From Escherichia virus TH40, in sequence record MT446411.1: a DNA stretch of 64,000 nucleotides. One strand, 5' to 3'. A program made the translations under genes and the position numbers. Positions 2,485 to 55,126 of this stretch are shown in pieces; position 1 is the stretch's first letter, and the number at the start of each line of letters is the position of its first letter. The notes under the pieces were generated by a model. The model was not told the origin of the DNA and made no database searches. It saw only the letters and a list, made by a program, of their open reading frames with translations.

Positions 2485-2813
2485 CTCTTTTTCATTTTAA
2501 TCTTATCAATTTCATCTTGTATTTGCATTGTAACACACTTTTCTACATGCACTGCAAGCTCCGCTTTGCGGTCTTCAGAAGGGGTGCCGAAATCAACTGA
2601 AACTTTTCCAGATGGTTCAATTTTAATTCCGGTTACGTACACAATGTGATTGGACCCATCAGGGAGTGATAACAGAATTTCCTGCCGTACAGTTCCCATG
2701 GATTGCCGGATAATCTCCAAACTTTTTTCGTAGTAAGGTACAGAAGGAGCCTTAGCTCCCTCCGCATCTTTCTCGAAATTATCTAAATCAGATAAATCGA
2801 TATCATTCATCAA
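2469..2813 (-). CDS. 40: gp40-like head vertex assembly protein
   Basis: 114 aa ORF between uvsX and 41, the position and size of T4 gene 40. Confidence 0.6.
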   Translation of the reverse strand: MMNDIDLSDLDNFEKDAEGAKAPSVPYYEKSLEIIRQSMGTVRQEILLSLPDGSNHIVYVTGIKIEPSGKVSVDFGTPSEDRKAELAVHVEKCVTMQIQDEIDKIKMKKRWWKW

Positions 2814-3981
2814 GGTCTTCCATCATATCTAAATCGTTTTCGATATCTGCCGCAGACGGTTTTGTCTTACCTTCAGGAGCAGAGTATTTTTCAACCTTGG
2901 AGGCAATAAGCGCATCAACTTCGGCGTCAACAACAGCATTGCTATCGATTGCACCCAGCTGGTAATGTCGTTTGATTGCATCACGGAAAGGTTCGTGCTT
3001 GAACAACGGACCCCAGAATTCGGTACAGTTAGTATCTTTTGCGCGCCATGATTTTTCTTCGCGGACCATTTCACCGGTCTCAACATCAAGATATTCACGG
3101 TTATACCAACCAACTTTCGGTTTCACCACAAATCCGATTTCCATTGCCATATCAAGCAGGCCAGAATACGGGTCAATACCACCATCGAATTTTACATCAA
3201 TGAAGAATTTACTTTTCTCTTTGACCATACGAGATTTTTCGGCGTTCAGAACAAATTGGAAACCTTCAAGTTCTTTACCGGTTTCTTTAATCTGGCGTTT
3301 GCCGATAATGAATACGGTGTCCGCAGAATACATAACACCTGTACCACCGGTCATAACGGTTTTGCTGTACATCTCAATCGTCTCGATTGTATGGTTAACC
3401 GCGACACAAGGAATATCCTTGATACTAAAATACGGGGTAACAATACGGAACAGAGATTTCAAGGATTTAGCACGAGTCATATCGCCAACGACTTTTTCGT
3501 TCATCGCATCTTCTGTTTCTTTTTTAGACGCCATGTTACCGATTGAGTCAATAAAGATAATGACTTTTTCACCGCGCTCAATTGCTTCAAGCTGGTTAAC
3601 CATATCAACTTTCAATTGTTCAACCGACTGGATTGGTGTATGGATAACACGCTCCGGGTCTACTTTCATTGCACGAAGATAAGCTTCGGTGATACCAAAT
3701 TCTGAATCATAGAACAAACAGATTGCGTCGGGGTATTTGTTCATATATGCAGAGACCATCGTTAAACCCATATTGGATTTAAAGTGTTTTGACGGACCAG
3801 CAAAAATAGTCAAACCTGACTGCATACCACCATCTAGTGCACCGCTGATTGCAATGTTCAGCATCGGGATTTTTGTACGAACTACATCTTTATCATTAAA
3901 AAACTTGGACTTAGTAAGAGTCGCAGTCATTTTGGATGTAGAAGCTTTAATCAAACGGGATTTCAAATCTGCAATAGACAT
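2803..3981 (-). CDS. uvsX: UvsX RecA-like recombinase
   Basis: 392 aa; RecA-fold ATP-binding loop GPSKHFKS; strong resemblance to T4 UvsX as recalled. Confidence 0.93.
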   Translation of the reverse strand: MSIADLKSRLIKASTSKMTATLTKSKFFNDKDVVRTKIPMLNIAISGALDGGMQSGLTIFAGPSKHFKSNMGLTMVSAYMNKYPDAICLFYDSEFGITEAYLRAMKVDPERVIHTPIQSVEQLKVDMVNQLEAIERGEKVIIFIDSIGNMASKKETEDAMNEKVVGDMTRAKSLKSLFRIVTPYFSIKDIPCVAVNHTIETIEMYSKTVMTGGTGVMYSADTVFIIGKRQIKETGKELEGFQFVLNAEKSRMVKEKSKFFIDVKFDGGIDPYSGLLDMAMEIGFVVKPKVGWYNREYLDVETGEMVREEKSWRAKDTNCTEFWGPLFKHEPFRDAIKRHYQLGAIDSNAVVDAEVDALIASKVEKYSAPEGKTKPSAADIENDLDMMEDLDE

Positions 3982-4060
3982 TCATTTTTTCCATAGGCAC
4001 CATTATATTTTTCTCACAGGTTTAAGATAGGATAATTATATCACTGTATTTTTAGAGCAA

Positions 4061-4189
4061 TTAACGATTGAATCCACGATTAATTGCACGTTCAACAATC
4101 TTCCGGGTCTGACGTTTGTCCCACCAGTACATAAAACCAATACCAAATGCAGACAACAGCCACAGACTAATCAATAGCATACCAATCAT
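4061..4189 (-). CDS. Possible 42-aa single-TM peptide (hand-called, below ORF-track cutoff)
   Basis: Hand translation MIGMLLISLWLLSAFGIGFMYWWDKRQTRK...; no clear SD. Confidence 0.25.
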   Translation of the reverse strand: MIGMLLISLWLLSAFGIGFMYWWDKRQTRKIVERAINRGFNR

Positions 4190-4216
4190 AATATTTTTCT
4201 CGCAGTTCGGAGTAAT

Positions 4217-4324
4217 TTAGTAAACGTTTCCGCGTTTCCAGTTTTCTTCAGCCAAATGCTTATTACGCTTTTCTAATAGCAGCAAACCAATTACTGTTCC
4301 AACAATCAGAAGTAATAATAGCAT
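4217..4324 (-). CDS. Possible 35-aa single-TM peptide, start overlaps lipoprotein stop (TGATG)
   Basis: Hand translation MLLLLLIVGTVIGLLLLEKRNKHLAEENWKRGNVY; 1-nt stop/start overlap suggests coupling. Confidence 0.3.
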   Translation of the reverse strand: MLLLLLIVGTVIGLLLLEKRNKHLAEENWKRGNVY

Positions 4325-4827
4325 CAGTTAATACCTTGGCGTGCTTTCTCTTTAGCTATACATTTATTAATATAGCTCAGACGGTTTTGAGCAGAACGCT
4401 GATACATATCGCGATACTCATTGGCTTTTGGAGAACCCGTCTCTGCTGCCTGATAAGCTTCCGCGCGCATGATGTTTATCTGCATATTGATGTATGACAT
4501 GCAGACCTGTGAAATCTGGTTAACAGTATCCAGGTCATTTTGGCGCTTGGTTTCTGCTTCCAGTTTAGCAATGATTTCGTCATGCTTCGCAGCTTGTTCG
4601 CGTTTGTACTCAATTTCACGTTGAGCATATTTCGCGCAGTTATTTCCACATTGATTGTTGTCGCGTTTGTAGATAAGTCCAGTACCACCTTTGAAATCAA
4701 AGGAACCATTATGCACCTGACGGTCTGCAGCAATTCGCGCTTTACCAATCTCATTGGCATTAACAACATCGCCCTGGTAAGCACAACCAGATAGCAGCAT
4801 AACAGCTGCGATAGCTAACTTTTTCAT
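4324..4827 (-). CDS. Lipoprotein with coiled-coil region (start taken at MKKLAIAAVMLLSGC)
   Basis: Signal peptide plus lipobox LLSGC; GAGGAAA SD before internal Met; ORF track gives 4324..4854. Confidence 0.6.
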   Translation of the reverse strand: MKKLAIAAVMLLSGCAYQGDVVNANEIGKARIAADRQVHNGSFDFKGGTGLIYKRDNNQCGNNCAKYAQREIEYKREQAAKHDEIIAKLEAETKRQNDLDTVNQISQVCMSYINMQINIMRAEAYQAAETGSPKANEYRDMYQRSAQNRLSYINKCIAKEKARQGIN

Positions 4828-4977
4828 TGTATTTTCCTCAATTAAAACATTCATAACGGGCTTGGAGTCCCAAAAATACCCAACCCAAAATTAAAGTTGG
4901 AATCATATGCGGAGTCATTATTGCCCAATAGATTGACATACTAAAAAATGCAATCAGTACAATAATTGTAATTATCT

Positions 4978-5220
4978 TCATTTGGTTTCCTTGATGATAA
5001 TTACATGTGCATTTGATTTACGCTCAGCAACGAGTGCCCAGATAAATGCAATAAACCATCCGACCATTGTCCAACCTAACAGGAGGTTAACAAAGAAGAT
5101 TCCGCAATTACTTTTGGTTCCTCGCAGTAGCGCGATAATCCACGGCAGAAAATATGCCAGTGCAGCCAGGAAGAAAGAACCAGCACCAAGAACAACAGTA
5201 CCTGCAATTAATGTTTCCAT
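4978..5220 (-). CDS. imm: Superinfection-immunity (Imm)-like two-TM membrane protein
   Basis: 80 aa, two hydrophobic helices, LLGWTMVGW..WAL motif; located just downstream of gene 43 as imm is in T4. Confidence 0.6.
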   Translation of the reverse strand: METLIAGTVVLGAGSFFLAALAYFLPWIIALLRGTKSNCGIFFVNLLLGWTMVGWFIAFIWALVAERKSNAHVIIIKETK

Positions 5221-5240
5221 TTTAATATCCTTAATTTAAT

Positions 5241-5290
5241 CATCAGTAGTTGATGGAGTAATCATACGGCAATCCTTTGCCGTTGTAAAC
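5241..5290 (-). promoter_or_regulatory. T4-early-type promoter plus conserved leader (type A) upstream of imm
   Basis: Minus strand reads GTTTACA ... cATAAT-like ... CCATCAACTACTGA ... AAGGA ATG; seen directly. Confidence 0.5.
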
Positions 5291-5292
5291 AC

Positions 5293-8007
5293 TTAAAAAT
5301 CAAACATATCAAAAAGAGATGCTTTTTTCTCGTAATCAACCTTAGCTGCTTCAGAGAACCCTGTTAACGGTTTGACAAAAGTCTTCTGGAACAGTGTGTT
5401 GTAGTCCATCCACTGCAGAACCTGGTCACGAATTTCAATCGGGAGTTCAATCCCTGATGGCCATGCAATCACGGTTTCGCCAAACGGGTTACCAACTTTA
5501 AGAGGAAGCACATACACCTTTTCCCCTTCCATGATTTGTGGAACAGTCTTCAGCCCTTTAGTTGCACGCATATATGCAAGCACACCTTTGATATGAGCCG
5601 GGCACTTAAATCCAGGGAAACCACCCTCATTATATTTCTGGATGTTGTTAACTGATGATACACCCGCGATGGTCATGTAGTTAAGCTCATTAAATTCCTT
5701 ATTGAATTCCTTGAAGTATGTCTGCAGAGATTCTTCACCTTCTTGCAGCATGCGACGGATACATTCTTTCAGAGCTTTCTGGCATGCTTTTGGGGTGCTC
5801 GACTTTTGAGTTTCCAGACCCATGATTTTAAGTTTCGGAACAGCATATCGTGTGCCTTCCATATCGTACACATTCAGAGCATAACGCTTCTTCGCTGTCC
5901 AGAATCCACCAACACCTTTAGAACCCAGCGGAGGGCATGCAATCGCTTCACGGTCCATAAACATAAGGTGCTGTTTGTTGTTCATGTATTCAGCCAGCTC
6001 ACGGAAAGCTTTATCGATTGCCGGTTCCAGACGGTCTTTCGCAAACTTGTCCATGAAGTCAACCAGGTGGTTTGTATCGCGGAATTTAGATTCGCCACCA
6101 ACCTTTTTAATCAGGTTATCGCACTGAATATAAATGGAGTCAGTATCGCCATAGAATACATATGTTTCACCACTTGTACCACAAACACTATCAAAATATT
6201 CGTTAACTTTACGCTCAATCCACTGCAATGCAAGTTGACCAAAAGATGTAATTGCGGTTGCATTTCGCAGGTCAAAATAACGGAACCAGATATTACCCAG
6301 AGCACCATAACAACTGTTGATAAGCAGTTTACGGTTAATCTGTGCGGTCATGCCTGCAACTTCTTCCATCTGCGCTTTGTACAACATACCATTCAGAACT
6401 GTTTGATTCAGACCATGCAAGGCTGTTTTCATATTGTCATCAAAGTCATAACGATAATCAACTTCAGGCTCGGTTGTACCAACTCCTGGATTACGCAGAG
6501 CTTCCTTAATCAGTTCACCATTACGTTGAGCCGCAAGCATATAACCTTTGTGCTCTTTACGCTGATTAAACACCTTGGTGACTTCTGTCGGAATAATACC
6601 TGCAACATCTTTAAAATACATCATACCGTTTGGAGCACAACTAAATGTATCAGATGGACGGTCAGCAGTTCCTGCGATGTATTCGTACATTGGCGCTGGT
6701 GCAAATGAGCCGGCAATCGTTTCTGGACTGATGTTAATCTGTCGGATGATGCTCGGATACAGAGATGTTAAGTCACAGCTCATAACGTATTTGTATGCGT
6801 TCGGAATCGGTTCCTTAACAAATGCACCAGGGAACGATTGGCGAACATGCGATTTGGTTTCCGGAATGACTTTGTTTTGAGTCTTCAGGCTGTTAAAGAT
6901 AATCGCATCCCAAGTTTTGATTGGGCTGAATACAGACTGAATCTGCATTTTTGCGTAATAACCCATTGACTGGCTAAGGTTAATAAACTGTCGTTTACGG
7001 TCAATCTGTACAACACGATAAACATCGATGATGTTATAAGAAATATACCGTTGGTGATTTGATTCACGCAGTTTAGAAATCGGACCATCATACGGGAGTT
7101 TACCAACACCCAGCTCAGATTCTGCAACATAATCCAACGAATAAGATGGTTGGTTTGTGAAGCTGAACTTTTTGTACAGGTCCAGATAATCCAGAACAGA
7201 GATACCCAGAATCTGAATGATTTCTTGTTCTTCACCGAAACCGTTGTTAATGACCTTAACTTTTGTACGACGATGTGGACTCAGTCGTTTTGCCGTAGCT
7301 TCACCAAATACATTTTTAAGGCGGTTGTAGATATATGGAATATCAAACTTCTCGATGTTCCAACCAGTTAACATAACCGGAGTTTTCTCGTTCCAGAATA
7401 CCAAATACTGCTGGAGCATTTCTTCTTCTGAATCGAAAGCCATATAAACAATTTTTTCCAGGATTTCTTCAGGGACTTCATCGCCGCCATCTTCTTGCAG
7501 CTTAGCAGCAATATCGATAGACCATTGCTCCACAGTGGCGTATGGTGAGCTCAAAAGGTCAAAGACATAGAATTTATCGTCTATCGAATCATAGTGCGTC
7601 AGGGCATCAATAGGGTGACGTGCTTCAGACGGCTCAGGGAACCCATCAGGAGATGTCACCTCGATATCGAAGTTAGCCACACGGATTTTACTTGAATCGT
7701 ATTTGATTTCGTGTGGGTAACGGTCGGACAAGTACGCGAGTTTAAAGTCATCCATACCCATAGCTTCGAGACCCATGTCATTCATTCGCTTCATCCACTG
7801 GGATGCATCACGCATGGAATCGAATTCTTTTTTCACACAACCTTTATTATAGATGTCTGTATACTTTGCAGCCTGGTCTTCGCGGGCATGCATAAACAGG
7901 CATGGAGCATAGGGGATTTCACGAACACGTTCATGACCATTCTTGTCAATGTATCGTTCGAGTAGGTTGTCACCGATTTGTTCGATAGTTAAATAAAATT
8001 CTTGCAT
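5293..8007 (-). CDS. 43: Family-B DNA polymerase with 3'-5' exonuclease (T4 gp43-like)
   Basis: 904 aa; exo motif FDIE, polymerase motif YGDTDS, overall T4 gp43-like. Confidence 0.96.
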   Translation of the reverse strand: MQEFYLTIEQIGDNLLERYIDKNGHERVREIPYAPCLFMHAREDQAAKYTDIYNKGCVKKEFDSMRDASQWMKRMNDMGLEAMGMDDFKLAYLSDRYPHEIKYDSSKIRVANFDIEVTSPDGFPEPSEARHPIDALTHYDSIDDKFYVFDLLSSPYATVEQWSIDIAAKLQEDGGDEVPEEILEKIVYMAFDSEEEMLQQYLVFWNEKTPVMLTGWNIEKFDIPYIYNRLKNVFGEATAKRLSPHRRTKVKVINNGFGEEQEIIQILGISVLDYLDLYKKFSFTNQPSYSLDYVAESELGVGKLPYDGPISKLRESNHQRYISYNIIDVYRVVQIDRKRQFINLSQSMGYYAKMQIQSVFSPIKTWDAIIFNSLKTQNKVIPETKSHVRQSFPGAFVKEPIPNAYKYVMSCDLTSLYPSIIRQINISPETIAGSFAPAPMYEYIAGTADRPSDTFSCAPNGMMYFKDVAGIIPTEVTKVFNQRKEHKGYMLAAQRNGELIKEALRNPGVGTTEPEVDYRYDFDDNMKTALHGLNQTVLNGMLYKAQMEEVAGMTAQINRKLLINSCYGALGNIWFRYFDLRNATAITSFGQLALQWIERKVNEYFDSVCGTSGETYVFYGDTDSIYIQCDNLIKKVGGESKFRDTNHLVDFMDKFAKDRLEPAIDKAFRELAEYMNNKQHLMFMDREAIACPPLGSKGVGGFWTAKKRYALNVYDMEGTRYAVPKLKIMGLETQKSSTPKACQKALKECIRRMLQEGEESLQTYFKEFNKEFNELNYMTIAGVSSVNNIQKYNEGGFPGFKCPAHIKGVLAYMRATKGLKTVPQIMEGEKVYVLPLKVGNPFGETVIAWPSGIELPIEIRDQVLQWMDYNTLFQKTFVKPLTGFSEAAKVDYEKKASLFDMFDF

Positions 8008-8066
8008 TTGGTTTCCTTTATAGTCGAGTGATTGACTTTTGTTTTATGACTTGATGTTATTATACT

Positions 8067-8086
8067 ACAAAAGGGACCGAAGTCCC
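8067..8086 (-). terminator. Hairpin GGGAC-TTCG-GTCCC followed by U-run, between the small ORF and gene 43
   Basis: Read directly from sequence 8067-8090. Confidence 0.45.
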
Positions 8087-8092
8087 TTTGCT

Positions 8093-8320
8093 TTAAATTT
8101 CTATTGTACGTCGTTCGATGGTTGGATTACCCTTTTCATCTTTAGTTCTAACCATAGCCTGGAAGACTCTCTGTCCAGGATGCAATAATTTCTTGAGTTC
8201 CTTTTGAAATTCTATTTGAAGTTCTTCGGAAAGGTCAAAAATGGTTTGAGTTGGGGAAAGTCCATATATTTCTTTAAGGCGTTCGCATGTTTCAATTTCA
8301 TACTTCATATCAATTACCAA
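8093..8320 (-). CDS. Hypothetical protein (75 aa) between regA and 43
   Basis: ORF track; same-strand, non-overlapping apart from a short overlap with regA. Confidence 0.45.
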   Translation of the reverse strand: MVIDMKYEIETCERLKEIYGLSPTQTIFDLSEELQIEFQKELKKLLHPGQRVFQAMVRTKDEKGNPTIERRTIEI

Positions 8321-8678
8321 TTGTATATTTGGCTACGAGCTTCCAGTCGTCTTTTTGTTTAAAGGAGATAACACGGAAGTTGTTTGTTACTGCGAACAAT
8401 TCATTACGCTCTTCTTCTTTGATAGTGATTAAGCCCCAGTCTTCGAGCAGTTGAGTGATGGAATCACGGCGCTGATAGTCTTCACCATCAATATCCACCT
8501 GGCGACCATCCATACGCAACATTTCTTTGAAGTGAACAATATAATAACGGCCTTGCTTCTGGAGGATGTGGCAGCTCTGGTACAGCACACGGTCTTTATT
8601 ATTTGCGATGCCCATACGGGTCAGAGTTTCTTTAACTTTCAGGAAGTCTTCAGGTTGCTTTAATGTAATTTCAATCAT
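8310..8678 (-). CDS. regA: RegA translational repressor
   Basis: 122 aa; position between 62 and 43; sequence resembles T4 RegA as recalled. Confidence 0.8.
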   Translation of the reverse strand: MIEITLKQPEDFLKVKETLTRMGIANNKDRVLYQSCHILQKQGRYYIVHFKEMLRMDGRQVDIDGEDYQRRDSITQLLEDWGLITIKEEERNELFAVTNNFRVISFKQKDDWKLVAKYTIGN

Positions 8679-8679
8679 T

Positions 8680-9258
8680 TTACCATTCCAATATTTGTTT
8701 TTTAATTTCTTTTTGTTCTTTCACATTACTGGTAACTGTCTTTAAGAATTCATCCGTTACCAGACCTTTTGTCTTTTTCAAAACATCTTTAAGACTACCT
8801 TTGACTTTCAATGTTTCCATATACATCAAAGCATCATCAGCATTAATTGTATAATATTTCATTAAAAGCTTTAACACAAGCTGGACGCTGACTACATCCG
8901 GTTCAGCCTTTGCCCATTTACCATAACGTTTGCCTTGTGGAACCGCATGCAGCAAATAATTATAATGCTGCTGGTCTGTTAACCCGGCACCGATTAAGTT
9001 CATCACATTGACCTGCATAATGCAATCGACATGTTGGCTCAATGCGTTTTCTAACCAGAATTTATTGTAGTTTTCCGATTGAATCAGGTTTCGTGGTTTT
9101 TTACTAACGGTTATATCATTAAGAATCGCGAACAATTCATTTTCTGCTTTCTCTTTGTATGAATCGGACAATTCCTGAATTTTGTTAAAGTCGCGTGATT
9201 TCCACGCAACCTCATGTTCGTTTAATTGAACGTCATCATCAAAGAGACTTACAGCCAT
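8680..9258 (-). CDS. 62: Clamp loader small subunit (gp62-like)
   Basis: 192 aa ORF immediately downstream of gene 44 with overlapping stop/start; synteny. Confidence 0.75.
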   Translation of the reverse strand: MAVSLFDDDVQLNEHEVAWKSRDFNKIQELSDSYKEKAENELFAILNDITVSKKPRNLIQSENYNKFWLENALSQHVDCIMQVNVMNLIGAGLTDQQHYNYLLHAVPQGKRYGKWAKAEPDVVSVQLVLKLLMKYYTINADDALMYMETLKVKGSLKDVLKKTKGLVTDEFLKTVTSNVKEQKEIKKQILEW

Positions 9259-10208
9259 TTCATTTCCCCAGCCAGTTGAGCAAACAGATAAGTCAAGTGA
9301 ACTTCGGTATTAGCTGCAATGCCATGGTACTGATTATTCTCACCCACAATCTCATACATACGGATGATGCTTGCACCAGTCAGTTTGCCGTACATTTCAT
9401 CAGCCAGCTTTGCAATGAAGTTTGAATAATCATTTGCGTGTTTAGGAGCCAGACCACGAAGAACTTTAAAGTTACGGTCCTTAAGGGCATCAATCACGTC
9501 ATCAATTGGCGTGCGATTGTTTGTCACGATGCTTAGAATACCGGAATCGATAACACCCTTTGCAGAGTAACGGTCAAGCTCATTAATTGTCTTACGCAGG
9601 TCCGGGAAGTTATGCTTAACCAGAGCAGCAACAACTTTCAGGTCTTCGATTTCAACGCCTTCGTTTTTACATATCGCGACTGCACGATGAATCATCTCTT
9701 TCATCATAGTGGTCTGGTCAGCTGGAGTTGCTTCACCAAACTTAATTACGCGACAACGAGACTGCAGCGGAGTGATGATGCCATCGATATTGTTCGCGGT
9801 CATAATGATTGAACAGTTGCTCGAATAAGCTTCCATAAAGCTACGAAGGTGTCGTTGTGATTCAGCCAGACCCGCGCGGTCGAACTCATCGATAACAATT
9901 ACCTTGCGGCGACCTTCGATTGATTTAGATGATGCAAAGCGAGTCAATTCATTACGCACAAAGTCAATTCGGCAATCGGAGCCGTTAACAAACAGCATAT
10001 CAGAATTCGTATCTGCGCACATAGCTTTTGCAACTGTTGTCTTACCAGTACCAGGGGAACTACTGACTAGAATCAAGTTAGGAATTAAACCTTTTTTAAC
10101 AATCGCCTCTAATGTTTCTTTATCATGAGCCGGGAGAATACACTCTGATAATGTACCTGGGCGGTATTTTTGTTCCCACATGAATTCTTTGTCATTAACC
10201 GTTAACAT
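9249..10208 (-). CDS. 44: Clamp loader AAA+ ATPase subunit (gp44-like)
   Basis: 319 aa; Walker A SSSPGTGKTT; Walker B VIVIDEFD; SRC motif LQSRC. Confidence 0.93.
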   Translation of the reverse strand: MLTVNDKEFMWEQKYRPGTLSECILPAHDKETLEAIVKKGLIPNLILVSSSPGTGKTTVAKAMCADTNSDMLFVNGSDCRIDFVRNELTRFASSKSIEGRRKVIVIDEFDRAGLAESQRHLRSFMEAYSSNCSIIMTANNIDGIITPLQSRCRVIKFGEATPADQTTMMKEMIHRAVAICKNEGVEIEDLKVVAALVKHNFPDLRKTINELDRYSAKGVIDSGILSIVTNNRTPIDDVIDALKDRNFKVLRGLAPKHANDYSNFIAKLADEMYGKLTGASIIRMYEIVGENNQYHGIAANTEVHLTYLFAQLAGEMKWL

Positions 10209-10264
10209 ATATTTTCCTCATATTAGTTTCTACTTTGTACTCCATGGGGCCGAAGCCCCATTTA

Positions 10265-10960
10265 TTAATCTTGGAATTCGTGGCTAGAGCCTTGTTCCAT
10301 TGCAATCACATAGCTTGCTTGTGTGCCTTCAAACTTCGTAGCAAATTTATCATCTTTCGCCCAAAGCATAACACGGTAATCAGCCGGAATCATTTTCATG
10401 TTCAGTTTGTTAATGATAAATTTAAACGCTGCATCACCTTCGTAGTCGCCGCACACCAGGGAATACAATGGACGCGCTAACTCTTTATCTTCGAGCTGAT
10501 TATAACCATGGATAACAATCTTACCGTCTTTGTTGGTGATTGCAAAAGTATCCAGAGACAAACCACCAGCCACACGCAGAAGTTGTTGCAGGTCACTACC
10601 TTTCAGGTCGAAAATAACCTTAGCTACCGGGAAAGGAATCTTCTTAGCAGGGAACACGATAGTGCTCGGGTCTGCTGCAGGCCAGTGAATCGTTGAACGT
10701 TGGTCTTTGATAATGATGTTTGATGCGTCTTCAGCCAGAGATACTTCAGCTTGGTCAGTTACCAGGCCCAGGATACTTAAGAAGCCGTTCAGGTCATAAA
10801 TTGCGGCTTCAAAGTCGATTGTATCATTGATTTCGGCTTCGCCATATGACGCTCCAGTTACGGAACGAGTCAGGATGGTATTACCTGGCTTAAGCATAAT
10901 GCCAGAGTAAATGGAAGTGAAGTTTTTCAGAACTGCGATAGTGTCTTTAGAGAATTTCAT
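10265..10960 (-). CDS. 45: Sliding clamp (gp45-like)
   Basis: 231 aa; strongly resembles T4 gp45 as recalled; synteny. Confidence 0.88.
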   Translation of the reverse strand: MKFSKDTIAVLKNFTSIYSGIMLKPGNTILTRSVTGASYGEAEINDTIDFEAAIYDLNGFLSILGLVTDQAEVSLAEDASNIIIKDQRSTIHWPAADPSTIVFPAKKIPFPVAKVIFDLKGSDLQQLLRVAGGLSLDTFAITNKDGKIVIHGYNQLEDKELARPLYSLVCGDYEGDAAFKFIINKLNMKMIPADYRVMLWAKDDKFATKFEGTQASYVIAMEQGSSHEFQD

Positions 10961-10990
10961 TTAATTACCTTTTATTCAAATCAAAATTAA

Positions 10991-11422
10991 TTAAGCAACA
11001 ACTGCCATTTGTTTGCGGATGGCTTCTGGAAGAGATTCAATATACTCTGGAAGTTGTGCAGCAATAATAGAACCAGCTTGCACCAGATGGTCGTCAGAGT
11101 TAACGCAATAATCATCTTCAAGACGTTCGGAACCATCACGGTCGATAACCAGTTTAGCACCAGCAGCTAGTGAATCGTTGTAGTGATTACGCATCAGTTC
11201 AATCCACTTATCAGATACATCAGTATCAATCACACCATACAGCATGAATTTAATTTCTTGCGGCAGAGACTGCAGACGGGTAGCAGATGCTTCATCGCAT
11301 GCCAGGACCCAGGATTTACGAACACGGTTTTGGTTATGCGGGTTAGCGTCAGTGCGGATGGTTTTAACTTGGATATCTTTAGCAGTTACGTTGTTCATAA
11401 TATTCTCTCTATTCATTATCAA
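10991..11422 (-). CDS. rpbA: RNA polymerase-binding protein RpbA-like
   Basis: 143 aa ORF in the rpbA position between 45 and 46; assignment by synteny only. Confidence 0.5.
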   Translation of the reverse strand: MIMNRENIMNNVTAKDIQVKTIRTDANPHNQNRVRKSWVLACDEASATRLQSLPQEIKFMLYGVIDTDVSDKWIELMRNHYNDSLAAGAKLVIDRDGSERLEDDYCVNSDDHLVQAGSIIAAQLPEYIESLPEAIRKQMAVVA

Positions 11423-11674
11423 TTAATCAAAGTATTCATATGCGAACCAGGCATTGTGTCTGTTCGCGATTATTTTAACATATTCTTCACCGAAAGCGTT
11501 TTGCAAGTCACGTTCAGTGACAAGGTGTTCATCTTTCGAAAAGGTATTAACTAACACATACCGTTTAATTTCAGGGACAGCCAATAAATGCTGCCCGGTT
11601 AAGAAGTCAGCCATAATAGCCTCTATTATAACATCCTTGTTTAAAGCATTATTCCATAACAGTGAATCGACCAA
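11423..11674 (-). CDS. Hypothetical protein (83 aa)
   Basis: ORF track; 45.x-equivalent position. Confidence 0.4.
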   Translation of the reverse strand: MVDSLLWNNALNKDVIIEAIMADFLTGQHLLAVPEIKRYVLVNTFSKDEHLVTERDLQNAFGEEYVKIIANRHNAWFAYEYFD

Positions 11675-13331
11675 CTTTTTTCATCTGGAGATGTTGCCCG
11701 TATGCTTCCGGGTCATGGTCTCGGTGACTGATAATAAAGATGTTGGTGTCTTCCAATTTGTTCAGGATGGTAGCAATTGCTTTAACACCCTCTACATCCG
11801 TGGCCGAGTCAAAAACTTCATCCAGAATCAAGGTGTTAATATTAACACCAGATACTTTCGCAGCAATATCACGCCATGTAAACAGCAATGCAATATCGAT
11901 ACGAGCTTTTTCACCCTGGCTAAATGATGCATAGCTGAAGTCTTCACGTCCACGAGATTTAATCGTTTCGTTGAACTCTTCATCTAACGTAAAACTATAA
12001 TCAGCTTCCATAACTTTAAGGTAAGCGTTTATCTGCTTATTAAAGATAGGAATATATTTCTTAATAATCGCGCCTTTGATACCGGAATCTTTCAACATAT
12101 CCGTTAGGATGCCACGTTGATATTTTTCCATCACAAGGTCGGATTTCTGTTTGACTATTTTATCAAGCTGGTCTTGAAGCATTTTAATGTCTGCTGCATG
12201 GTCAATAAATTCTGACTTAGCTTGCTCGATTAATGCTTTAACCTTTTTAGCTTTTTCGACAGTCTGGACTAAGGTTTGTTTCTTAGTTTGAATGTCTTGA
12301 GCTATTGTACGTTGTTTTTGTCTTGCAGCAGAATACGCATCAAATTGCTCCTGAACAGCTTTCTGGCGAGCTTTATGGTTATCAGCTGATACATTACATT
12401 CTTCAATCTTTGACTCAATCCTGGCGACAATAGGGTCTCCTGGATGCAACTGACTGGCACAAGTCTGACAACAACCACCTTTCTCGTACAGACCAACAAC
12501 CTTTCGGTAATCGTCTATCTTCGACTTAATCAGGAATGATTCCTGCTTTAACTTCGTTAGTTCATGCTCAGGGTCTTCTCCCAAGATTATCTCGGTCAGT
12601 CTTGTCGTTGCTTCTTCGATAGTTGTCTTAATTCCACGTGCTTCTGTGGCAAGTTCATCATACATCGTTTGCAGCCGCAACAGATTATCACCTGATAATT
12701 TTCTTTGACGGTCTTCGTTGTCCTGATAGATTTTAATCTGTTGAACAATACCATCATGCTGCACATCCATCACCTGGATTTGACTATTGACTTCGCGGAT
12801 AAGAGATTTGTTCAGCTTATCCATATCGGCCAGTACAGAAACCTCTAAAAGGTCTTCGACAAGTTTTCTTCTTGCAGGAGTGGATAGGCCCATAAAAGGG
12901 GTATATCCAGCTGTGCCGAGTACGACAATTTGTTTGAAACTGGCGTATGACATTCCGATAAGCTGTTCAAATTCCGCTTGGAAGTCTTTACTGCTGGCAG
13001 ATTCATCAAGACGTTTACCGCCACAAGAGATTTCAAAAACATTGGGTTTTTGCCCGCGTTTGATATAGTATTCTTTTCCATCATATTCCATCCACAATTC
13101 AACGAGCATATCTTTTTTGTTGCTCGAGTTAATCAACTGGCCTTTCTTTACATCACGGAAAGGCTTACCGAACATAGCAAAGGTAACCGCTTCAAGGAAC
13201 GTAGATTTACCTGCACCATTCTTACCGGTGACCAGAGTTTTCTGGACTTTATCCAGTTCAACAGTAATCGGTTGAGCACCAACCGACATAATATTTTTAT
13301 AGATAACTTTCTTAAGCTTAAAATTCTTCAC
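11649..13331 (-). CDS. 46: Rad50/SbcC-like recombination ATPase (gp46-like)
   Basis: 560 aa; Walker A GKNGAGKST; long coiled coil with CxxC zinc hook (CCQTC); C-terminal LILDEVFD. Confidence 0.9.
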   Translation of the reverse strand: MKNFKLKKVIYKNIMSVGAQPITVELDKVQKTLVTGKNGAGKSTFLEAVTFAMFGKPFRDVKKGQLINSSNKKDMLVELWMEYDGKEYYIKRGQKPNVFEISCGGKRLDESASSKDFQAEFEQLIGMSYASFKQIVVLGTAGYTPFMGLSTPARRKLVEDLLEVSVLADMDKLNKSLIREVNSQIQVMDVQHDGIVQQIKIYQDNEDRQRKLSGDNLLRLQTMYDELATEARGIKTTIEEATTRLTEIILGEDPEHELTKLKQESFLIKSKIDDYRKVVGLYEKGGCCQTCASQLHPGDPIVARIESKIEECNVSADNHKARQKAVQEQFDAYSAARQKQRTIAQDIQTKKQTLVQTVEKAKKVKALIEQAKSEFIDHAADIKMLQDQLDKIVKQKSDLVMEKYQRGILTDMLKDSGIKGAIIKKYIPIFNKQINAYLKVMEADYSFTLDEEFNETIKSRGREDFSYASFSQGEKARIDIALLFTWRDIAAKVSGVNINTLILDEVFDSATDVEGVKAIATILNKLEDTNIFIISHRDHDPEAYGQHLQMKKVGRFTVME

Positions 13332-13546
13332 AAAAGATTCCTTTTAATGTATCTTTTAGACCATTCTATCATATCATCATAATCTAAAAAGCATTCATCA
13401 AATTCAGCCATGCAAACAACACCTTGTGCTGCTTTTGATGTGATATAAATTATTCCAATATATCTAGAATCTTCTTCGGTATAATCAATATTTGCTACGA
13501 ATTCATCACCAAGATTAAATTCAAAAGTCTTCATCATAATAAGCAT
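13328..13546 (-). CDS. Hypothetical protein (72 aa)
   Basis: ORF track; between 46 and 47. Confidence 0.4.
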   Translation of the reverse strand: MLIMMKTFEFNLGDEFVANIDYTEEDSRYIGIIYITSKAAQGVVCMAEFDECFLDYDDMIEWSKRYIKRNLL

Positions 13547-13784
13547 CCTTGATGCATGATTCAGCCATATGAATTAATGTCTCTGGAGTATCATCTTCCA
13601 TTACATTAAAGCTAAATTCTACGGCCCAATCGGTGACTACATAGACTTTGATAAGTTGACCGGTTTCCCGGTCAGTGATAGCTTCAAACCAATACTTAAT
13701 AGTATTCGGTTGATTATCGTCGTCAACCACATCACATTCGCGGATATGTTCAAGCCCCGCTTCATTAAAATCATAAAGTCTCAT
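13521..13784 (-). CDS. Hypothetical acidic protein (87 aa)
   Basis: ORF track; between 46 and 47. Confidence 0.4.
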   Translation of the reverse strand: MRLYDFNEAGLEHIRECDVVDDDNQPNTIKYWFEAITDRETGQLIKVYVVTDWAVEFSFNVMEDDTPETLIHMAESCIKDAYYDEDF

Positions 13785-14800
13785 GGTTGCACCTCAAGAT
13801 ATAATTTGTTAGCCAATGCTTTGAGAGCTTTTGATTCTTTCTCATTGGCATCAGGCAATGCATCGATATATTCTGCCATCATATCAGTTAAGCGTTTTAT
13901 GTCTAACTCTTCTTCGGAGTCAGTCGTATCAACACTGTTATCAACCTTATTGACAACACGCAATTCATGCACACGCTTTTCTAATTCGGATTCGAACTTG
14001 GTCAGGTCTTTATCGACTTTTTCTACAATAACACGGACTGATAAGTCTTTGAAGTCGTCGTAGTTAATAGTTTCGTTTGGATAGAAAATCTTCCGATGCC
14101 AGGTGGTTTCATTCGGAATAAATTTCATCTCTTCGGTTTCGGTATCAAATTCCCAGAACCCACGCGGGTCGTTCTCATCACCCGCTGTTAATGTCCATGG
14201 TGTCCCGATGTACTTAACGTTCGCAGCTTCTGAAATGGTATGGAAGTGCCCAGACCAAACTTGTTTGTACTTCTTAAGGAAATCAGGCTCAAGCCCGTGG
14301 GATTTCAGTCCTTTATAGAAATAAAACCCGGTTAATTCCCAGTGACCGATGCAATATTCAGCCCCAGAAGTTTTGATGTGTTGATGAATGTCAGTCGCGT
14401 TCTCGTCACACATCCATGGAATCATATCAATCTGGCAACCGTCAAAATCAACAGTCGTTGGCTTATCGTAGATTTTAACATGGTCATACTTATTCAGGAG
14501 CTCAGTGATAGCATTAGGATGAATCTTATTCTTCAGATTCATGTCATGGTTCCCGACTATCGTGTGCATAGTAATTCCTGCTTCACGAAGGAGTTCCATA
14601 ATCTCACGGCTGAATTCCATCGTCTTATGCGTTACGGCCTTACGGACGTCAAAAATATCACCATACTGAATCCAGACTTTAATTCCATTCGCTTTGGAAT
14701 ATGCAATCGCCTGTAAAATACCATCACGTTGAATGTTTTGAGCCCATGGGTCGTCAGCTTTGACCCCTAAGTGCCAATCACCTAAATTTAAAATTTTCAT
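13781..14800 (-). CDS. 47: Mre11/SbcD-like nuclease (gp47-like); start taken at MKILNLGDWHLG
   Basis: Phosphoesterase motifs GDWHLG, GDIFD, GNHD; ORF track extends to 14827 but internal Met matches T4 gp47 N-terminus. Confidence 0.88.
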   Translation of the reverse strand: MKILNLGDWHLGVKADDPWAQNIQRDGILQAIAYSKANGIKVWIQYGDIFDVRKAVTHKTMEFSREIMELLREAGITMHTIVGNHDMNLKNKIHPNAITELLNKYDHVKIYDKPTTVDFDGCQIDMIPWMCDENATDIHQHIKTSGAEYCIGHWELTGFYFYKGLKSHGLEPDFLKKYKQVWSGHFHTISEAANVKYIGTPWTLTAGDENDPRGFWEFDTETEEMKFIPNETTWHRKIFYPNETINYDDFKDLSVRVIVEKVDKDLTKFESELEKRVHELRVVNKVDNSVDTTDSEEELDIKRLTDMMAEYIDALPDANEKESKALKALANKLYLEVQP

Positions 14801-15436
14801 AAGCCAAGCACCGTTATCGCAATGCAAAATAAAATTACTGAAATGAACCCGTCAGGAGTAGAAAAGAATCCTATCCAACAAGCTCTTGTGAATGTGTAGA
14901 ATGCCATGAATAGCACGACATATCCTAAAAATAATTCCATATACTCTCCTCAGTTGGTTCATTTTATCATCCCGAATATAAAGCAAAAAAGGAAGCACTA
15001 GGCTTCCTTTCCAATTAATACACCGTACAGAGGTTCGTGAGAAGACCTGAACTTGATAGGCTTATAGGTAATAGTACCTTCATTTTCTGCTTTAATACGA
15101 GCAGCTTCAAATTGAAGTATCATCTCATTTTTGTCAGATTTAATCTTATCAAAATCCGTCGAATTCGTCATTCATATAGCCTCTTAAACTTTTTCGTATT
15201 CGTCATTCATAAGTTTAAAAATCCGGGTGTTCGTCTTCAAAGCAACCGATATTCATCGCTGCCACCACTTCTTAAGTTGATGTGAATCCACCCAAACCTT
15301 GGCCACGGGCTCAATCTGAAAAATACCATCAGAATACTGCCCAACCATTTTATATTCGGTTTCGGTCTGCTTGATACAGATATTACCATATGAGCGAAGT
15401 CTGAAAGCGGCTCCAACAAGAAGCCGTTTAAAAGGT

Positions 15437-15748
15437 TTATTTACTAATGCCATTTACGATTTCCCAAATTTGTTTGCGAGTAGTTTCCCACATCAACTTA
15501 ATCAGGTCTTCCGTAACTGGTTGACGGTAAATTCCACGCAGTTTAACTAAAGCATATTTGTATGCTTCAAAATTGTTTTCCAGCACTGCGCCTTGAGCAT
15601 GTTTATTCAGACGTGCAATTTCACGAGCATTCTTTTTCAGAATCTTCGCTGCTTGACTGGTTGCTTCGAGCGCGTTCGCTTCTTCGAGACGTTCCTGTGC
15701 TTCTTCAATCTGCTTATCGGTCAGTTGAGAAATATCTGGAGCTTGCAT
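15437..15748 (-). CDS. Hypothetical protein (103 aa)
   Basis: ORF track; between 47 and 55. Confidence 0.4.
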   Translation of the reverse strand: MQAPDISQLTDKQIEEAQERLEEANALEATSQAAKILKKNAREIARLNKHAQGAVLENNFEAYKYALVKLRGIYRQPVTEDLIKLMWETTRKQIWEIVNGISK

Positions 15749-15749
15749 A

Positions 15750-16001
15750 TTAATCCTTGGGAGTTAACTCAATTGTAAAATATAGATTAGCATTATCTAC
15801 ATGATAACGGTAATCAACGTTATTATCCGGTGAAGTAAATTCCAGATTCCGGACGTTTAAAGGGTCGATATCAATTGGAAGACCTTTTATGTCTCGCAGA
15901 TAAAGTTTAATGAAATATGGGAGCGCAGTAAAGTCTTCCTCGATTTTATCTAAAAAATCGGTAATATCAAATTGATGTTCCATATAAAAAATCCAAATCA
16001 C
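15750..16001 (-). CDS. Hypothetical protein (83 aa)
   Basis: ORF track; short overlap with gene 55 end. Confidence 0.4.
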
Positions 16002-16524
16002 CTTCTTTATCTTTGGCGCTCTTATCAGACCCTGGCGCTTTAACTAAAGAGGATTCGTACTGTGTCATTTTGTCATAGATGTCCTGGATAAATGTTTCAT
16101 CAGCCAGAGCCACCATATCGTCGTCACGTGAATCATATACGTTATGGACGAAGTAGCTATATTTCTTTGCCATTTCTTTACGTTCTTTTTTGATACGCTG
16201 AACGAAAGCATTGAAGCAAGCCATTGTTATGTAAGCATGTGGATTATCGTATTTTGTTTCGTCGAAGTTGTGAAGACCTTTTATTGCGGCCTCAATTCCG
16301 TCTGCTATCATTTCTTGCTTCCAGGATTGGGTATATCCGGAGAAGTTGAAACGTTTGCTAAGACCTTCGGCTATAAGCATAATCGCCAGACCAATAACAT
16401 CGTTCTGGCGAATAATTTTGTTCGGGTTGGTGTTCGCATTCAGCTTCTGTTTCCACTCCGAAATAGCTTTCAAAAGCTCTTTATTATTTACATAGTTATT
16501 CTTGGTTAATTTAATTTCGTTCAT
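15967..16524 (-). CDS. 55: Late transcription sigma factor gp55
   Basis: 185 aa; long stretches match my recollection of T4 gp55 (e.g. [28 protein letters not shown]). Confidence 0.88.
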
Positions 16525-19809: not shown

Positions 19810-20280
19810 TTAATCATGTTTCCACACCCCATCGGTATTTGACCAAAGTCGCTGATTATCTGACCCTCGCCACAGTTTTTTGGTCGGAAGATTTTTATCA
19901 TACTTCCCATCAATAATAACATCAACATATTTAAGCATTTCTAGTTGTTTAATATCTTCAAACTTATATCCTGTCCACATCCAAATACTTTTATTTGGAT
20001 AAAGATTTTTAACAGTTTGAACCACAGAGTGAATAACCTCTCGGTTATCGGGATAGAGAGGGTCTCCTCCAGTTATAGTTAATCCTTCTATATAATCATT
20101 ATTCAAACATTCAATTAATTGTTCTAGTGTTTCACCAGTGAATGGAACTCCATTTCTAGCATTCCATGTTGATTTATTATAACACCCTTCGCATTTATGC
20201 AAACAACCTGTGACGAAAAGAACGACCCTGCATCCAGGGCCATTAATAAAATCACAAGGATAAATTCTATCATAATTCAT
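19810..20280 (-). CDS. nrdG: Anaerobic ribonucleotide reductase activating enzyme (radical SAM)
   Basis: 156 aa; CxxxCxxC cluster motif (CLHKCEGC); directly downstream of nrdD. Confidence 0.9.
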   Translation of the reverse strand: MNYDRIYPCDFINGPGCRVVLFVTGCLHKCEGCYNKSTWNARNGVPFTGETLEQLIECLNNDYIEGLTITGGDPLYPDNREVIHSVVQTVKNLYPNKSIWMWTGYKFEDIKQLEMLKYVDVIIDGKYDKNLPTKKLWRGSDNQRLWSNTDGVWKHD

Positions 20281-22599: not shown

Positions 22600-22785
22600 T
22601 TATTTTTCAAATGTGCTATAGAACGAACGATGCAACCGTTTAAATTGACGAATCATCTTTTTGGTAGGACGAGTATACAATCCCACACAGGTGGCCATAA
22701 ACTGGTCAGTAGGGCTTCCTTTGATAAGGAGTTTCCAGACCTTGTCACCGTTTAACTTTTCGGTATAGACTAATGCAGTTTTCAT
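22600..22785 (-). CDS. Hypothetical basic protein (61 aa)
   Basis: ORF track. Confidence 0.35.
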   Translation of the reverse strand: MKTALVYTEKLNGDKVWKLLIKGSPTDQFMATCVGLYTRPTKKMIRQFKRLHRSFYSTFEK

Positions 22786-23057
22786 TAAACAATCCTAAAA
22801 CAAGGATAATGACATTCAACGTTACCATTATCAATTATCATATACTCAGTGATACAGGTCCATGACCCTTCAATTTCTATGGTATCAAAAAGGTATTCAT
22901 CTGTTTCAACAACGTCCCAAACATTACATTCAACATCAGGGTCAAAACGTTGTCTTAATGCCTGGATAACATCGCCATTTTTAAATCCTGCGTCTTGAAG
23001 CTCTTTCATAAATCCTGATTGAGCAGCCGCATGAATATTAACAATTTCTAAAAACAT
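22785..23057 (-). CDS. Hypothetical protein (90 aa)
   Basis: ORF track. Confidence 0.4.
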   Translation of the reverse strand: MFLEIVNIHAAAQSGFMKELQDAGFKNGDVIQALRQRFDPDVECNVWDVVETDEYLFDTIEIEGSWTCITEYMIIDNGNVECHYPCFRIV

Positions 23058-49169: not shown

Positions 49170-49171
49170 TT

Positions 49172-52777: not shown

Positions 52778-52778
52778 G

Positions 52779-52830: not shown

Positions 52831-52832
52831 AC

Positions 52833-53075: not shown

Positions 53076-53083
53076 TTGAAATC

Positions 53084-53356: not shown

Positions 53357-53364
53357 AAGAAACC

Positions 53365-54448: not shown

Positions 54449-54449
<1 letters not shown>

Positions 54450-55126
54450 TATATTACCTTATTAATTTTATCAAAAAGTTCTTCGAGTGTGCCATCGTTT
54501 TTAATAACAATGTCACTAGCTAGTGGTGGAAGTCCAGCTTCCGTAATGTGTGTATCAGTAGAATGATTTGCTTCATCGCGTTCTACAAAGATTATTGTAG
54601 CACCCATCGCCCGAAGCGAATCAAGTTCGTTCTTTTGGCGAACATCAGGGACAACGTAATATTTATATCCAGAATAGAGGTTGTCAAGATAATCGCACGC
54701 AAAAGTTTTAATCCAAAACATGCTGTCGAACTCTGTACAAACGATGTCAGTTCCAAGGGTCTGCATGAAACGTCTAACTGTCCAGGGCTCAACATTATTT
54801 AGTGTGTGAAATTCAATGATTTTACGAACCATATCTGGATTCGGAAGGTCAAGATTATATTGTTGTTTTAACCATTCAAGAGCATCAACCAGAAGAATAT
54901 AAGCTTCGGTATTGTTCATTATCAAGGTTTTTTCACGGTCATAACCTTGTCCATCAAAATTTTCCAGGGTCAAATTGTGTGGCAGGTCTTGACGAACCCA
55001 CGCTTTATAAAGCGCTTCTTTAATTGGACCAGCAAGTTGCCACTTTGTTCCGTTTTGACTAATAACATAATCAGCGGTCGTATCTTTACCACTGCGTTTT
55101 TTACCCACAATCGCAATTAATTTCAT
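54449..55126 (-). CDS. 1: Deoxynucleoside monophosphate kinase (gp1)
   Basis: 225 aa; P-loop GKKRSGKDT; N-terminus similar to T4 gp1. Confidence 0.8.

Follow-up and report, generated by a model that had tools for sequence, protein, structure and literature searches.

Absence of T4-type cytosine-modification genes in Gaprivervirus coliphages and a thymidylate synthase-family enzyme as a candidate for their replacement

The T4-like coliphages of the genus Gaprivervirus raise the question of which cytosine is found in their DNA and which enzyme provides it, the genes for cytosine hypermodification being missing from the positions they occupy in T4. We addressed this question using a 64,000-nucleotide stretch of the genome of Escherichia virus TH40 (MT446411.1; hereafter the window), which harbors the replication module from uvsX to gene 55, and the genomes of its relatives. 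Some form of cytosine replacement is very probably made by genes located outside both of the T4 slots in question. The candidate we favor is the ortholog of the T4 td gene, whose thymidylate synthase (TS)-family product carries an aspartate in place of an asparagine at position 177. Judged from its sequence, this enzyme may have become a deoxycytidine monophosphate (dCMP) methyltransferase giving rise to 5-methylcytosine (5mC) DNA, an exact chemistry to which we assign slightly better than even chances.

The cytosine-modification slots of the replication module

The 12.5-kb region spanning both slots, on which an earlier sequence-only reading of the window had commented, shares 97.1% identity over its full length with Escherichia phage vB_EcoM_RZ (hereafter RZ) and 96-98% identity with VR20, SP18, MN01, P479 and further phages, while at least 80% of the region is covered in 37 records. 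By sequence similarity, the source of the window is a Gaprivervirus, a T-even-type (T4-like) coliphage. The complete RZ genome (NC_070780; 291 annotated features), assembled from loci L001-L005, served as the closest-relative reference. The window corresponds to approximately 30.4-94.4 kb of this genome, with a window position x being located at approximately x + 30,444 in RZ.

The positions of the T4 genes were determined from a map of open reading frames (ORFs), combined with tblastn searches of the 64-kb window and of RZ using the proteins of the T4 record. The genes uvsX, imm, 43, regA, 62, 44, 45, rpbA, 45.2, 46, 46.1, 46.2, 47, 47.1, a-gt.2, a-gt.3, a-gt.4, a-gt.5 and 55 are found on the minus strand in the order observed in T4 (Table 1), and the tblastn matches for uvsX, imm, 45.2, 46.1, 46.2, 47.1, a-gt.2 to a-gt.5 and 55 show 39-89% identity to the T4 proteins. 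The collinearity with T4 claimed in the sequence-only reading is thus borne out, as is its claim that no ORF resembling a dCMP hydroxymethylase or a glucosyltransferase is present between uvsX and imm or between genes 47 and 55. The tblastn searches of both slots were negative, with the former slot containing mini-ORFs and a lipoprotein gene and the latter a 57-bp spacer between 47.1 and a-gt.2, which leaves no room for a-gt or mobB.

The same reading had proposed a search for gene 42 and the glucosyltransferases elsewhere in the genome, and when this was performed on the complete RZ genome none were found, leaving the reading unrefuted. The best tblastn match to T4 gp42 reached an E value of 0.98 when the window was searched and of 0.46 for the complete RZ genome, while those to T4's two glucosyltransferases (alpha-gt and beta-gt) had E values of 0.6 or worse in both, amounting to no homologue in each case. 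Furthermore, no hydroxymethylase, glycosyltransferase or DNA methyltransferase, and no dam homologue, is annotated among the RZ features, and a Pfam scan of 20 mid-size window ORFs identified no methyltransferase, glycosyltransferase or hydroxymethylase domain. The 12.5-kb stretch is 12.1 to 13.1 kb long across the top 20 related records, and as such neither slot hides a module in any of them. The absence of the known cytosine-hypermodification genes is real and, in the relatives, genome-wide, extending beyond the syntenic positions. As a genus-level fact, the absence of gene 42 and the associated genes has already been published.

Only one ORF of appreciable size is located between uvsX and imm; it codes for a 176-amino acid (aa) predicted lipoprotein, which matches phrog_1754 (function unknown) and has an N-terminus resembling T4 Imm.1 (E value: 0.002), with no match to Pfam or NCBIfam. 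As a replacement enzyme this protein was rejected, since its N-terminal lipoprotein signal peptide (MKKLAIAAVMLLSGC) predicts that it is exported, so that it cannot be a nucleotide enzyme. In JS98, a member of the sister genus Dhakavirus, the uvsX-imm interval comprises orf38-42, followed by orf43, orf44 and imm. The orf38-42 genes are annotated as RB69 orf047c-, 048c-, 045c-, 051c- and 052c-like, and their RB69 counterparts encode an arabinosyltransferase, a 5-hydroxy-dCMP synthase (a TS homologue), a nucleotide kinase, a phosphatase and a uridine diphosphate (UDP)-arabinose nucleotidyltransferase-kinase (PMC13326640). None of JS98 orf38-42 yielded a tblastn match with an E value below 0.1 in the window or RZ. 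DNA-level homology to JS98 is lost approximately 65 bp upstream of the start of uvsX and restarts at orf43, and no remnants of orf38-42 or T4 gp42 were found by tblastn and DNA comparison in the junction of approximately 340 bp. Relative to JS98, there is a clean gap of approximately 4.2 kb at the position of the cytosine-modification module. The window thus has in common with JS98, a phage with the RB69/JS98/DLP3-type arabinosyl-5-hydroxycytosine pathway, a slot flanked by orf43, orf44 and imm. It differs in that the cluster itself, which in phages of this type encodes a 5-hydroxy-dCMP synthase with a D169N substitution, arabinosyltransferases and the UDP-arabinose genes (PMC13326640), has gone without a remnant. 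Both a-gt and mobB are missing in JS98 too, so that the empty 47-55 slot is common to Dhakavirus.

Near-identical 17-nt leaders can be observed at the uvsX-imm junction (window 3982-4230, minus strand), one before the uvsX start region (TGTGAGAAAAATATAATG) and another before the 42-aa mini-ORF (TGCGAGAAAAATATTATG). These may be cassettes for promoters or translation initiation that became duplicated at the site from which the module is missing.

Table 1. Coordinates of the replication-module genes, the two empty slots and the gene 1 kinase in the window
Feature	Position	Strand	Evidence
uvsX recombinase, left anchor of the gene-42 slot	2803..3981	-	tblastn with T4 UvsX, 79% identity over 390 aa
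Empty gene-42 slot (T4: segA, beta-gt, gene 42; JS98: orf38-42)	3982..4323	-	Only two mini-ORFs
Mini-ORF, hydrophobic peptide, 42 aa	4061-4189	-	ORF map
Mini-ORF, hydrophobic peptide, 35 aa	4217-4324	-	ORF map
176-aa predicted lipoprotein, JS98 orf43 homologue	4324..4854	-	Signal peptide with lipobox; 53% identity to JS98 orf43
47-aa ORF, homologue of JS98 orf44 / RB69 orf054c	4838..4981	-	tblastn, 53-56% identity to the JS98 orf44 locus
imm (superinfection immunity), right anchor of the gene-42 slot	4978..5220	-	51% identical to T4 Imm across 83 aa, E=4e-23
Gene 43 DNA polymerase	5293..8007	-	99% identity to RZ, 78% to JS98 polymerase; RZ annotation
Gene 47 (SbcD-like nuclease subunit), anchoring the alpha-gt slot on its left	13781..14827	-	99% identity to RZ gp089, 73% to JS98 gp47; RZ annotation
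Gene 47.1 homologue	14797..14940	-	80% identity to T4 gp47.1
57-bp spacer where T4 has alpha-gt and mobB	14941..14997	.	ORF coordinates, T4 gene order
a-gt.2, a-gt.3, a-gt.4, a-gt.5 homologues	14998-15171, 15253-15453, 15437-15748, 15750-15983	-	tblastn with T4, 39-58% identity, E 1e-12 to 1e-22
Gene 55 late sigma factor, anchoring the alpha-gt slot on its right	15967..16524	-	80% identity to T4 gp55
Gene 1 deoxynucleoside monophosphate kinase	54449..55126	-	Pfam DNMK 3.8e-77

The cytosine-exclusion apparatus and the td-slot enzyme

The apparatus which T4 directs against cytosine-containing DNA, one that is meaningful only in a phage whose own DNA is free of plain cytosine, has been kept in the relatives. 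The RZ annotation includes a gp56-type pyrophosphohydrolase, endonuclease IV (DenB), Alc, DenA, the dCMP deaminase Cd, the dihydrofolate reductase Frd and gp1, and the T4-type exclusion network is complete, with gp1 located in the window and the deoxycytidine triphosphatase (dCTPase) gp56, Alc, DenA and DenB present with intact sequences in RZ. Alc and DenB are otherwise confined to phages with modified cytosine (PMC8056088, PMC12115623, Petrov et al. 2010). A comparative study found Gaprivervirus to be without a known enzyme for a non-canonical base, yet to possess DenA, DenB, Alc and dCTPase, and suggested a protein still to be identified (PMC8056088, 2021). A second study arrived at the same conclusion (PMC12115623, 2025), and both call the base unknown. 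Our literature search identified no paper naming the Gaprivervirus base or describing an N177D td in T4-like phages.

Strain BL21 is dcm-negative. The DNA of the Gaprivervirus VR7, obtained from growth on this strain, was digested with a panel of enzymes including EcoRII and SalI, which are both blocked by 5mC, and the methylation-indifferent Csp6I, and from these digests, as described in the accompanying legend, 'modified cytosines' are reported in DNA that is unglycosylated. The phage is furthermore reported to be fully blocked by the BREX system (PMC6326788, 2018). The same legend gives the DNA of VR5 and T4 as glycosylated and that of T4(147) as hydroxymethylated, with the latter set apart from VR7 (PMC6326788).

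Several of the retained proteins are diverged. The gp1 kinase represents a strongly diverged, genus-specific lineage, being 98-99.6% identical among 33 Gaprivervirus records, while the best match to it outside this group in the phage collection shows 55% identity. The gp1 of the window shares 47% identity with that of JS98, as compared to 64-80% for the neighboring genes, and Alc and DenB are 49% and 43% identical, respectively, between RZ and JS98. On the basis of these identities, the divergence of gp1, Alc and DenB may be read as co-adaptation to a different base. A second ORF of 88 aa lies beside the full-length alc in RZ (NC_070780 146009-146275; locus L004 10-276). The N-terminal half of its product resembles the Alc N-terminus (LITNDRVTKAYGDRNDGIYVYKG...), and it looks like a partial alc duplication.

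When the nucleotide-metabolism proteins of RZ and JS98 were compared side by side, the td product stood out. The TS-family gene of RZ is located at 152938-153798 in the frd-td-nrdA slot (approximately 153 kb), outside of the window, and is directly preceded by frd. The RZ protein reads QRSVDVFLGLPFDIGSY where that of JS98 reads QRSVDVFLGLPFNIASY, with GLPFDIGSY replacing the GLPFNIASY of JS98, S16 and T4. By alignment with Escherichia coli ThyA, the changed residue is Asn177, which is also an asparagine in the T4 TS structure (1TIS); the ThyA copy used for numbering gives R21, E58, C146, H147, N177 and Y209 at the expected positions. Asp177 is present in all five Gaprivervirus genes aligned (RZ, VR7, SP18, P8 and CJ20, the latter two constituting an 86%-identical sub-lineage), being encoded by GAC or GAT, and dN/dS ratios of 0.04-0.16 among the Gaprivervirus td genes indicate that Td is under purifying selection. 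In the phage collection, 30 records belong to this lineage with an identity of at least 95% and two with 85.7%, while the next matches (S16 and T4-type td) do not exceed 70%, and a single TS-like locus is found per genome in all 32. As such, the Asn177-type TS is absent from the Gaprivervirus genomes examined, each having one TS-like locus, which is of the Asp lineage. Among the 120 closest protein clusters in a large protein database, 115 have asparagine at this position, with aspartate in four Gaprivervirus clusters and one further protein, P0073.

The signature of the Gaprivervirus enzyme is L143/D169/D177, with R21, E58, W80, Y94, C146, H147, R166, H207 and Y209 retained. Twenty-eight alignment columns separate the Asp from the Asn group, including 52, 55, 56, 57, 82, 84, 148 and 149, all of which are sequence neighbors of known active-site residues. 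The protein aligns over its full length with 1TIS (428 bits; approximately 66% identity) and is 64-70% identical to canonical T4-type TS enzymes. It furthermore scores 282 bits against the NCBIfam thymidylate synthase equivalog TIGR03284, far above the cut-off of 108, and for this reason has been overlooked by annotation pipelines and comparative studies. The TS fold and catalytic residues of a canonical ThyA/Td are thus found in the gene of the relatives, while the asparagine at position 177 that selects deoxyuridine monophosphate (dUMP) is not. The features of a dCMP C5-methyltransferase are present, namely Asp177 and, at position 143, the bulky hydrophobic residue leucine along with Asp169. 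All 15 Asp-type sequences share this combination, and the remaining catalytic residues are likewise conserved in them. TS enzymes with asparagine at position 177 act on dUMP, and those with aspartate on dCMP to give 5-methyl-dCMP (PMC8670742, mutagenesis summary; PMC13326640), and in metagenomes Asp177 marks contigs with modified cytosine (PMC8670742). At position 143, leucine excludes water and leads to a methyl product, while aspartate or glutamate is found in the hydroxymethylases, and asparagine at position 169 is a feature of the 5-hydroxy-dCMP synthases (PMC13326640). The RB69/JS98/DLP3-type synthase has Asn169, whereas the Gaprivervirus Td has Asp169. Under the published rules, the combination L143/D169/D177 predicts that dCMP is reductively methylated to 5-methyl-dCMP. 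Such a reaction fits the retained frd and the DNA of VR7, which according to the legend cited above is modified, unglycosylated and separate from the hydroxymethylated control.

The Gaprivervirus Td carries the same single-residue switch on an intact TS scaffold as two engineered enzymes. The N177D variant of the E. coli TS and the N229D variant of the Lactobacillus casei TS, made by Hardy and Nalivaika and by Liu and Santi in 1992, reportedly act as dCMP methylases (cited in PMC8670742 and PMC13326640). The phage protein differs from these in being a natural allele with approximately 27 further lineage-specific substitutions.

Aspartate at position 177 is not restricted to Gaprivervirus. Among 240 aligned T4-like Td relatives, the 15 proteins of the Asp type are distributed over at least four clades split by Asn-type branches, as judged from a rough neighbor-joining tree without support values. 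P0073 is encoded on a 5.4-kb metagenomic contig (locus L016, Logan SRR24146912) with frd-td synteny; its nearest relatives are the Gaprivervirus proteins, and no cultured relative was found in the phage collection. Acinetobacter phage 133 likewise has DenB, Alc and dCTPase and no known modification enzyme (PMC8056088), and its td (NC_015250, loci L017-L019) is also of the Asp type (GKPFDIASY). The uvsX-imm interval of phage 133 contains small ORFs only, and tblastn with T4 gp42 and JS98 orf39 against 150 of the 159.8 kb of its genome produced no match, with td as the sole TS-like locus. Acinetobacter phage ZZ1 and Morganella phage MP1 have likewise been reported to be without gene 42. Proteins annotated as thymidylate synthases with the L143/D169/D177 signature can furthermore be observed in uncultured T4-like phages of at least three clades besides Gaprivervirus (P0122-P0124, P0163, P0171, P0173, P0176 and P0235), with P0123 located on a 108.7-kb contig.

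The proposed pathway and its alternatives

The pathway we propose would begin with gp56, which would degrade deoxycytidine triphosphate (dCTP) and diphosphate (dCDP) to dCMP. The td-slot enzyme, with its Asp177, Leu143 and Asp169, would reductively methylate dCMP to 5-methyl-dCMP, releasing dihydrofolate that the product of the adjacent frd could recycle. The diverged gp1 kinase and the host Ndk would then raise 5-methyl-dCMP to 5-methyl-dCTP for incorporation into DNA by the gp43 polymerase, and Alc, DenA and DenB would hit only the cytosine-containing DNA of the host. For deoxythymidine monophosphate (dTMP), speculative sources by analogy are the action of the phage dCMP deaminase (Cd) on 5-methyl-dCMP, the host ThyA, or residual activity of Td on dUMP.

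This scheme has the logic of replacement at the nucleotide level in common with the 5-hydroxymethylcytosine (hmC) pathway of T4, along with the gene order of the module and the accessory genes (gp1 in the window; gp56, Alc, DenA, DenB and Cd in the relatives). It differs in the genome-wide absence of gp42, alpha-gt and beta-gt from the relatives and in a predicted methyl product bearing no sugar. A closer chemical parallel, set beside Gaprivervirus here by description, is the Xanthomonas phage Xp12, for which a TS-family dCMP methyltransferase and the complete replacement of cytosine by 5mC are reported in work referenced by PMC5175136. The likeness lies in the predicted step from dCMP to 5-methyl-dCMP by a TS homologue and in the proposed deamination route to dTMP (PMC5175136, PMC12088426). 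The latter source states that dCMP deaminases accept 5-methyl-dCMP, and describes for Xp12 a 'new thymidylate biosynthesis' by deamination of 5-methyl-deoxycytidine nucleotides (PMC12088426). Xp12 is, however, an unrelated phage, while the Gaprivervirus enzyme is a T4 td ortholog situated in the frd-td-nrdA slot and accompanied by T4-type Alc and DenB, so that the likeness would be convergent.

A number of points weigh against a td-derived 5mC pathway. The td gene lies outside of the window, and the allele of the TH40 genome is taken from more than 30 relatives. The residue rules derive from mutagenesis and from other phage enzymes, and the product of the Gaprivervirus Td could differ. RZ was isolated on K-12 MG1655, although McrBC, McrA and Mrr would be expected to attack DNA in which 5mC takes the place of all cytosine; an inhibitor of these type IV enzymes would consequently be needed, and no Arn-like inhibitor was identified here. 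The co-occurrence of an Asp-type Td with the loss of gene 42 is observed in two cultured lineages only. For one of these, phage 133, a gene-42 allele is listed by Petrov et al. 2010 (Table 4), with which the tblastn result disagrees over the 150 of 159.8 kb searched; the entry may refer to the Asp-type td.

The alternative that fares best is a modified cytosine other than 5mC, arising either from an Asp-type Td that makes another C5 product, such as 5-hydroxymethyl-dCMP, or from an unrecognized enzyme located elsewhere, with Asp177 being incidental. We consider this unlikely, while leaving it an appreciable share of the probability. In the case of VR7, the literature speaks only of 'modified cytosines', in the legend cited above, and in that of the genus of an 'unknown base'. 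Many of the genus-specific ORFs cannot be assigned a function, and growth on McrBC+ hosts would be easier if the type IV enzymes did not recognize the base. A hydroxymethyl or hydroxy product is, however, at odds with Leu143 and Asp169 and with the high identity of Td to canonical T4-type TS enzymes, including that of T4 itself, and the legend reports VR7 apart from the hydroxymethylated T4(147). A comparison of the whole of RZ with JS98 for a genus-specific modification gene yielded only homing endonucleases, nrdD/G, a collagen-repeat fiber protein, internal proteins and small ORFs, none of them enzyme-like for modification, and the Pfam scan of 20 mid-size window ORFs found no methyltransferase or glycosyltransferase domain.

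That these phages use ordinary cytosine, with gene 42 simply lost and gp56, Alc and DenB retuned or serving in other roles, appears improbable. The known modification genes are absent from the window and RZ, gp56 homologues are also present in T4 relatives without the hmC pathway (PMC12115623, Table 4), and the strong divergence of Alc and DenB from JS98 would be compatible with such a retuning. The two proteins are nevertheless intact in RZ and otherwise found in modified-cytosine phages only, the DNA of VR7 is described in the legend as cytosine-modified after growth on BL21, and an Asp177 enzyme under purifying selection would have no obvious role in such a phage. Of the two options offered by the sequence-only reading, unmodified cytosine is thus the one to be set aside, being unlikely in view of the retained gp56, DenA, DenB and Alc and of the VR7 digests as the legend describes them, whereas a different pathway encoded elsewhere is sustained by the N177D/L143/D169 enzyme in the td slot of all Gaprivervirus genomes examined. 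Methylation of cytosine after replication by a phage DNA methyltransferase, which would likewise explain the block of EcoRII and SalI and make gene 42 dispensable, is very improbable indeed, given that none is annotated among the 291 features of RZ, not even dam, that none was detected in the scanned window ORFs, and that a site-specific enzyme would leave the phage exposed to its own DenB and Alc.

A 5mC pathway based on the td ortholog can be extended into a fuller and more tentative account, the joint probability of which we place somewhat short of even. In this account, the Gaprivervirus phages would be 5mC coliphages that lost the ancestral slot module and converted td by N177D, with dTMP provided through deamination and with an undiscovered inhibitor of McrBC/McrA/Mrr, which may be one of the internal proteins lacking a counterpart in JS98. 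This switch in td would have occurred recurrently, in phage 133 and in at least two further metagenomic clades.

Other genes of the window and implications for T-even phages

The sequence-only reading had remarked that the state of the cytosine matters for the interpretation of the internal proteins, as T4 IPI counters a restriction system that targets glucosylated DNA. The remark is a reasonable one and is given some substance by an array of internal-protein ORFs. Four tandem ORFs at 52544-53730 on the minus strand, encoding proteins of 77, 80, 90 and approximately 111-121 aa, each start with a T4-type internal-protein capsid-targeting sequence (MKTYQEFINE, MKTYQTFINES, MKTFNELFNES and MNIKTYNEFLAES), and a further ORF of this kind is located at 40188-40487. 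The three ORFs at 52833-53730 are without a JS98 homologue, and the internal-protein ORFs lacking such a counterpart are candidates for injected anti-restriction proteins.

Several further window ORFs were considered as replacement enzymes and rejected. Homologues of the large nrdC-region ORFs without an assigned function, namely nrdC.4, the DUF7235 ORF, nrdC.6, nrdC.8, the nrdC.11 nucleotidyltransferase gene and the 228-aa and 336-aa ORFs, are found in JS98 in every case and for the most part in T4 as well, so that they are not genus-specific. A 248-aa ORF (29270-30016, plus strand) within the minus-strand early-gene block is approximately as large as gp42 and has a counterpart in RZ, though none in JS98. 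It was discarded because its product is a collagen-repeat protein of the 'tail needle knob' type and no enzyme, the collagen-like repeat being GPPGPKGEPGVPGPKGDPG and the C-terminal domain corresponding to phrog_1030 ('tail needle knob').

Additional non-conserved genes can be observed throughout the window. A 267-aa ORF (31245-32048, minus strand), which shows a weak match to an HNH endonuclease, constitutes an insertion between the gene for the nrdC.11-like nucleotidyltransferase and the next membrane-protein gene. It is missing from the same site in RZ and JS98, its nearest RZ relative being found elsewhere (44% identity), and it is probably a homing endonuclease polymorphic within the genus. 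The anaerobic ribonucleotide reductase genes nrdG and nrdD (19810-22094, minus strand) are present in the window and RZ, with no tblastn match in JS98. Two adjacent paralogous ORFs on the minus strand, 48738-49220 (160 aa) and 49253-49678 (141 aa), cross-match phrog_18416 and phrog_9997 and have no JS98 homologue. The tRNA genes at 51085-51160 and 51294-51367 (minus strand) are those for Arg(TCT) and Met(CAT), while JS98 has Arg, Asn and Met at this location. The small ORFs at 212-451, 22785-23057, 23348-23668, 35948-36133, 48352-48657, 50460-50843 and 51446-51922 have no tblastn match in RZ. Some of these match JS98 instead, for example 212-451 (95%) and 51446-51922 (75%), which shows mosaic exchange between Gaprivervirus and Dhakavirus.

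The two comparative papers mentioned above hold that a non-canonical base is indispensable for the replication of Gaprivervirus phages and that no enzyme producing one is known, and one of them therefore withholds a recommendation for therapeutic use (PMC8056088, PMC12115623). The reading of a single residue in a 'thymidylate synthase' provides a concrete hypothesis for the base which the literature leaves open. If true, it would add a third cytosine chemistry to the T-even group, beside glucosyl-hmC and arabinosyl-5-hydroxycytosine, and would represent the swapping of a modification pathway through the recruitment of a housekeeping paralogue. Methyl-dependent type IV enzymes would then be predicted to act against Gaprivervirus phages, and the reported BREX sensitivity of the unglycosylated VR7 fits the lack of a protective sugar. 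We suggest that, should this hold, annotations of phage proteins as thymidylate synthases would conceal dCMP-specific enzymes.

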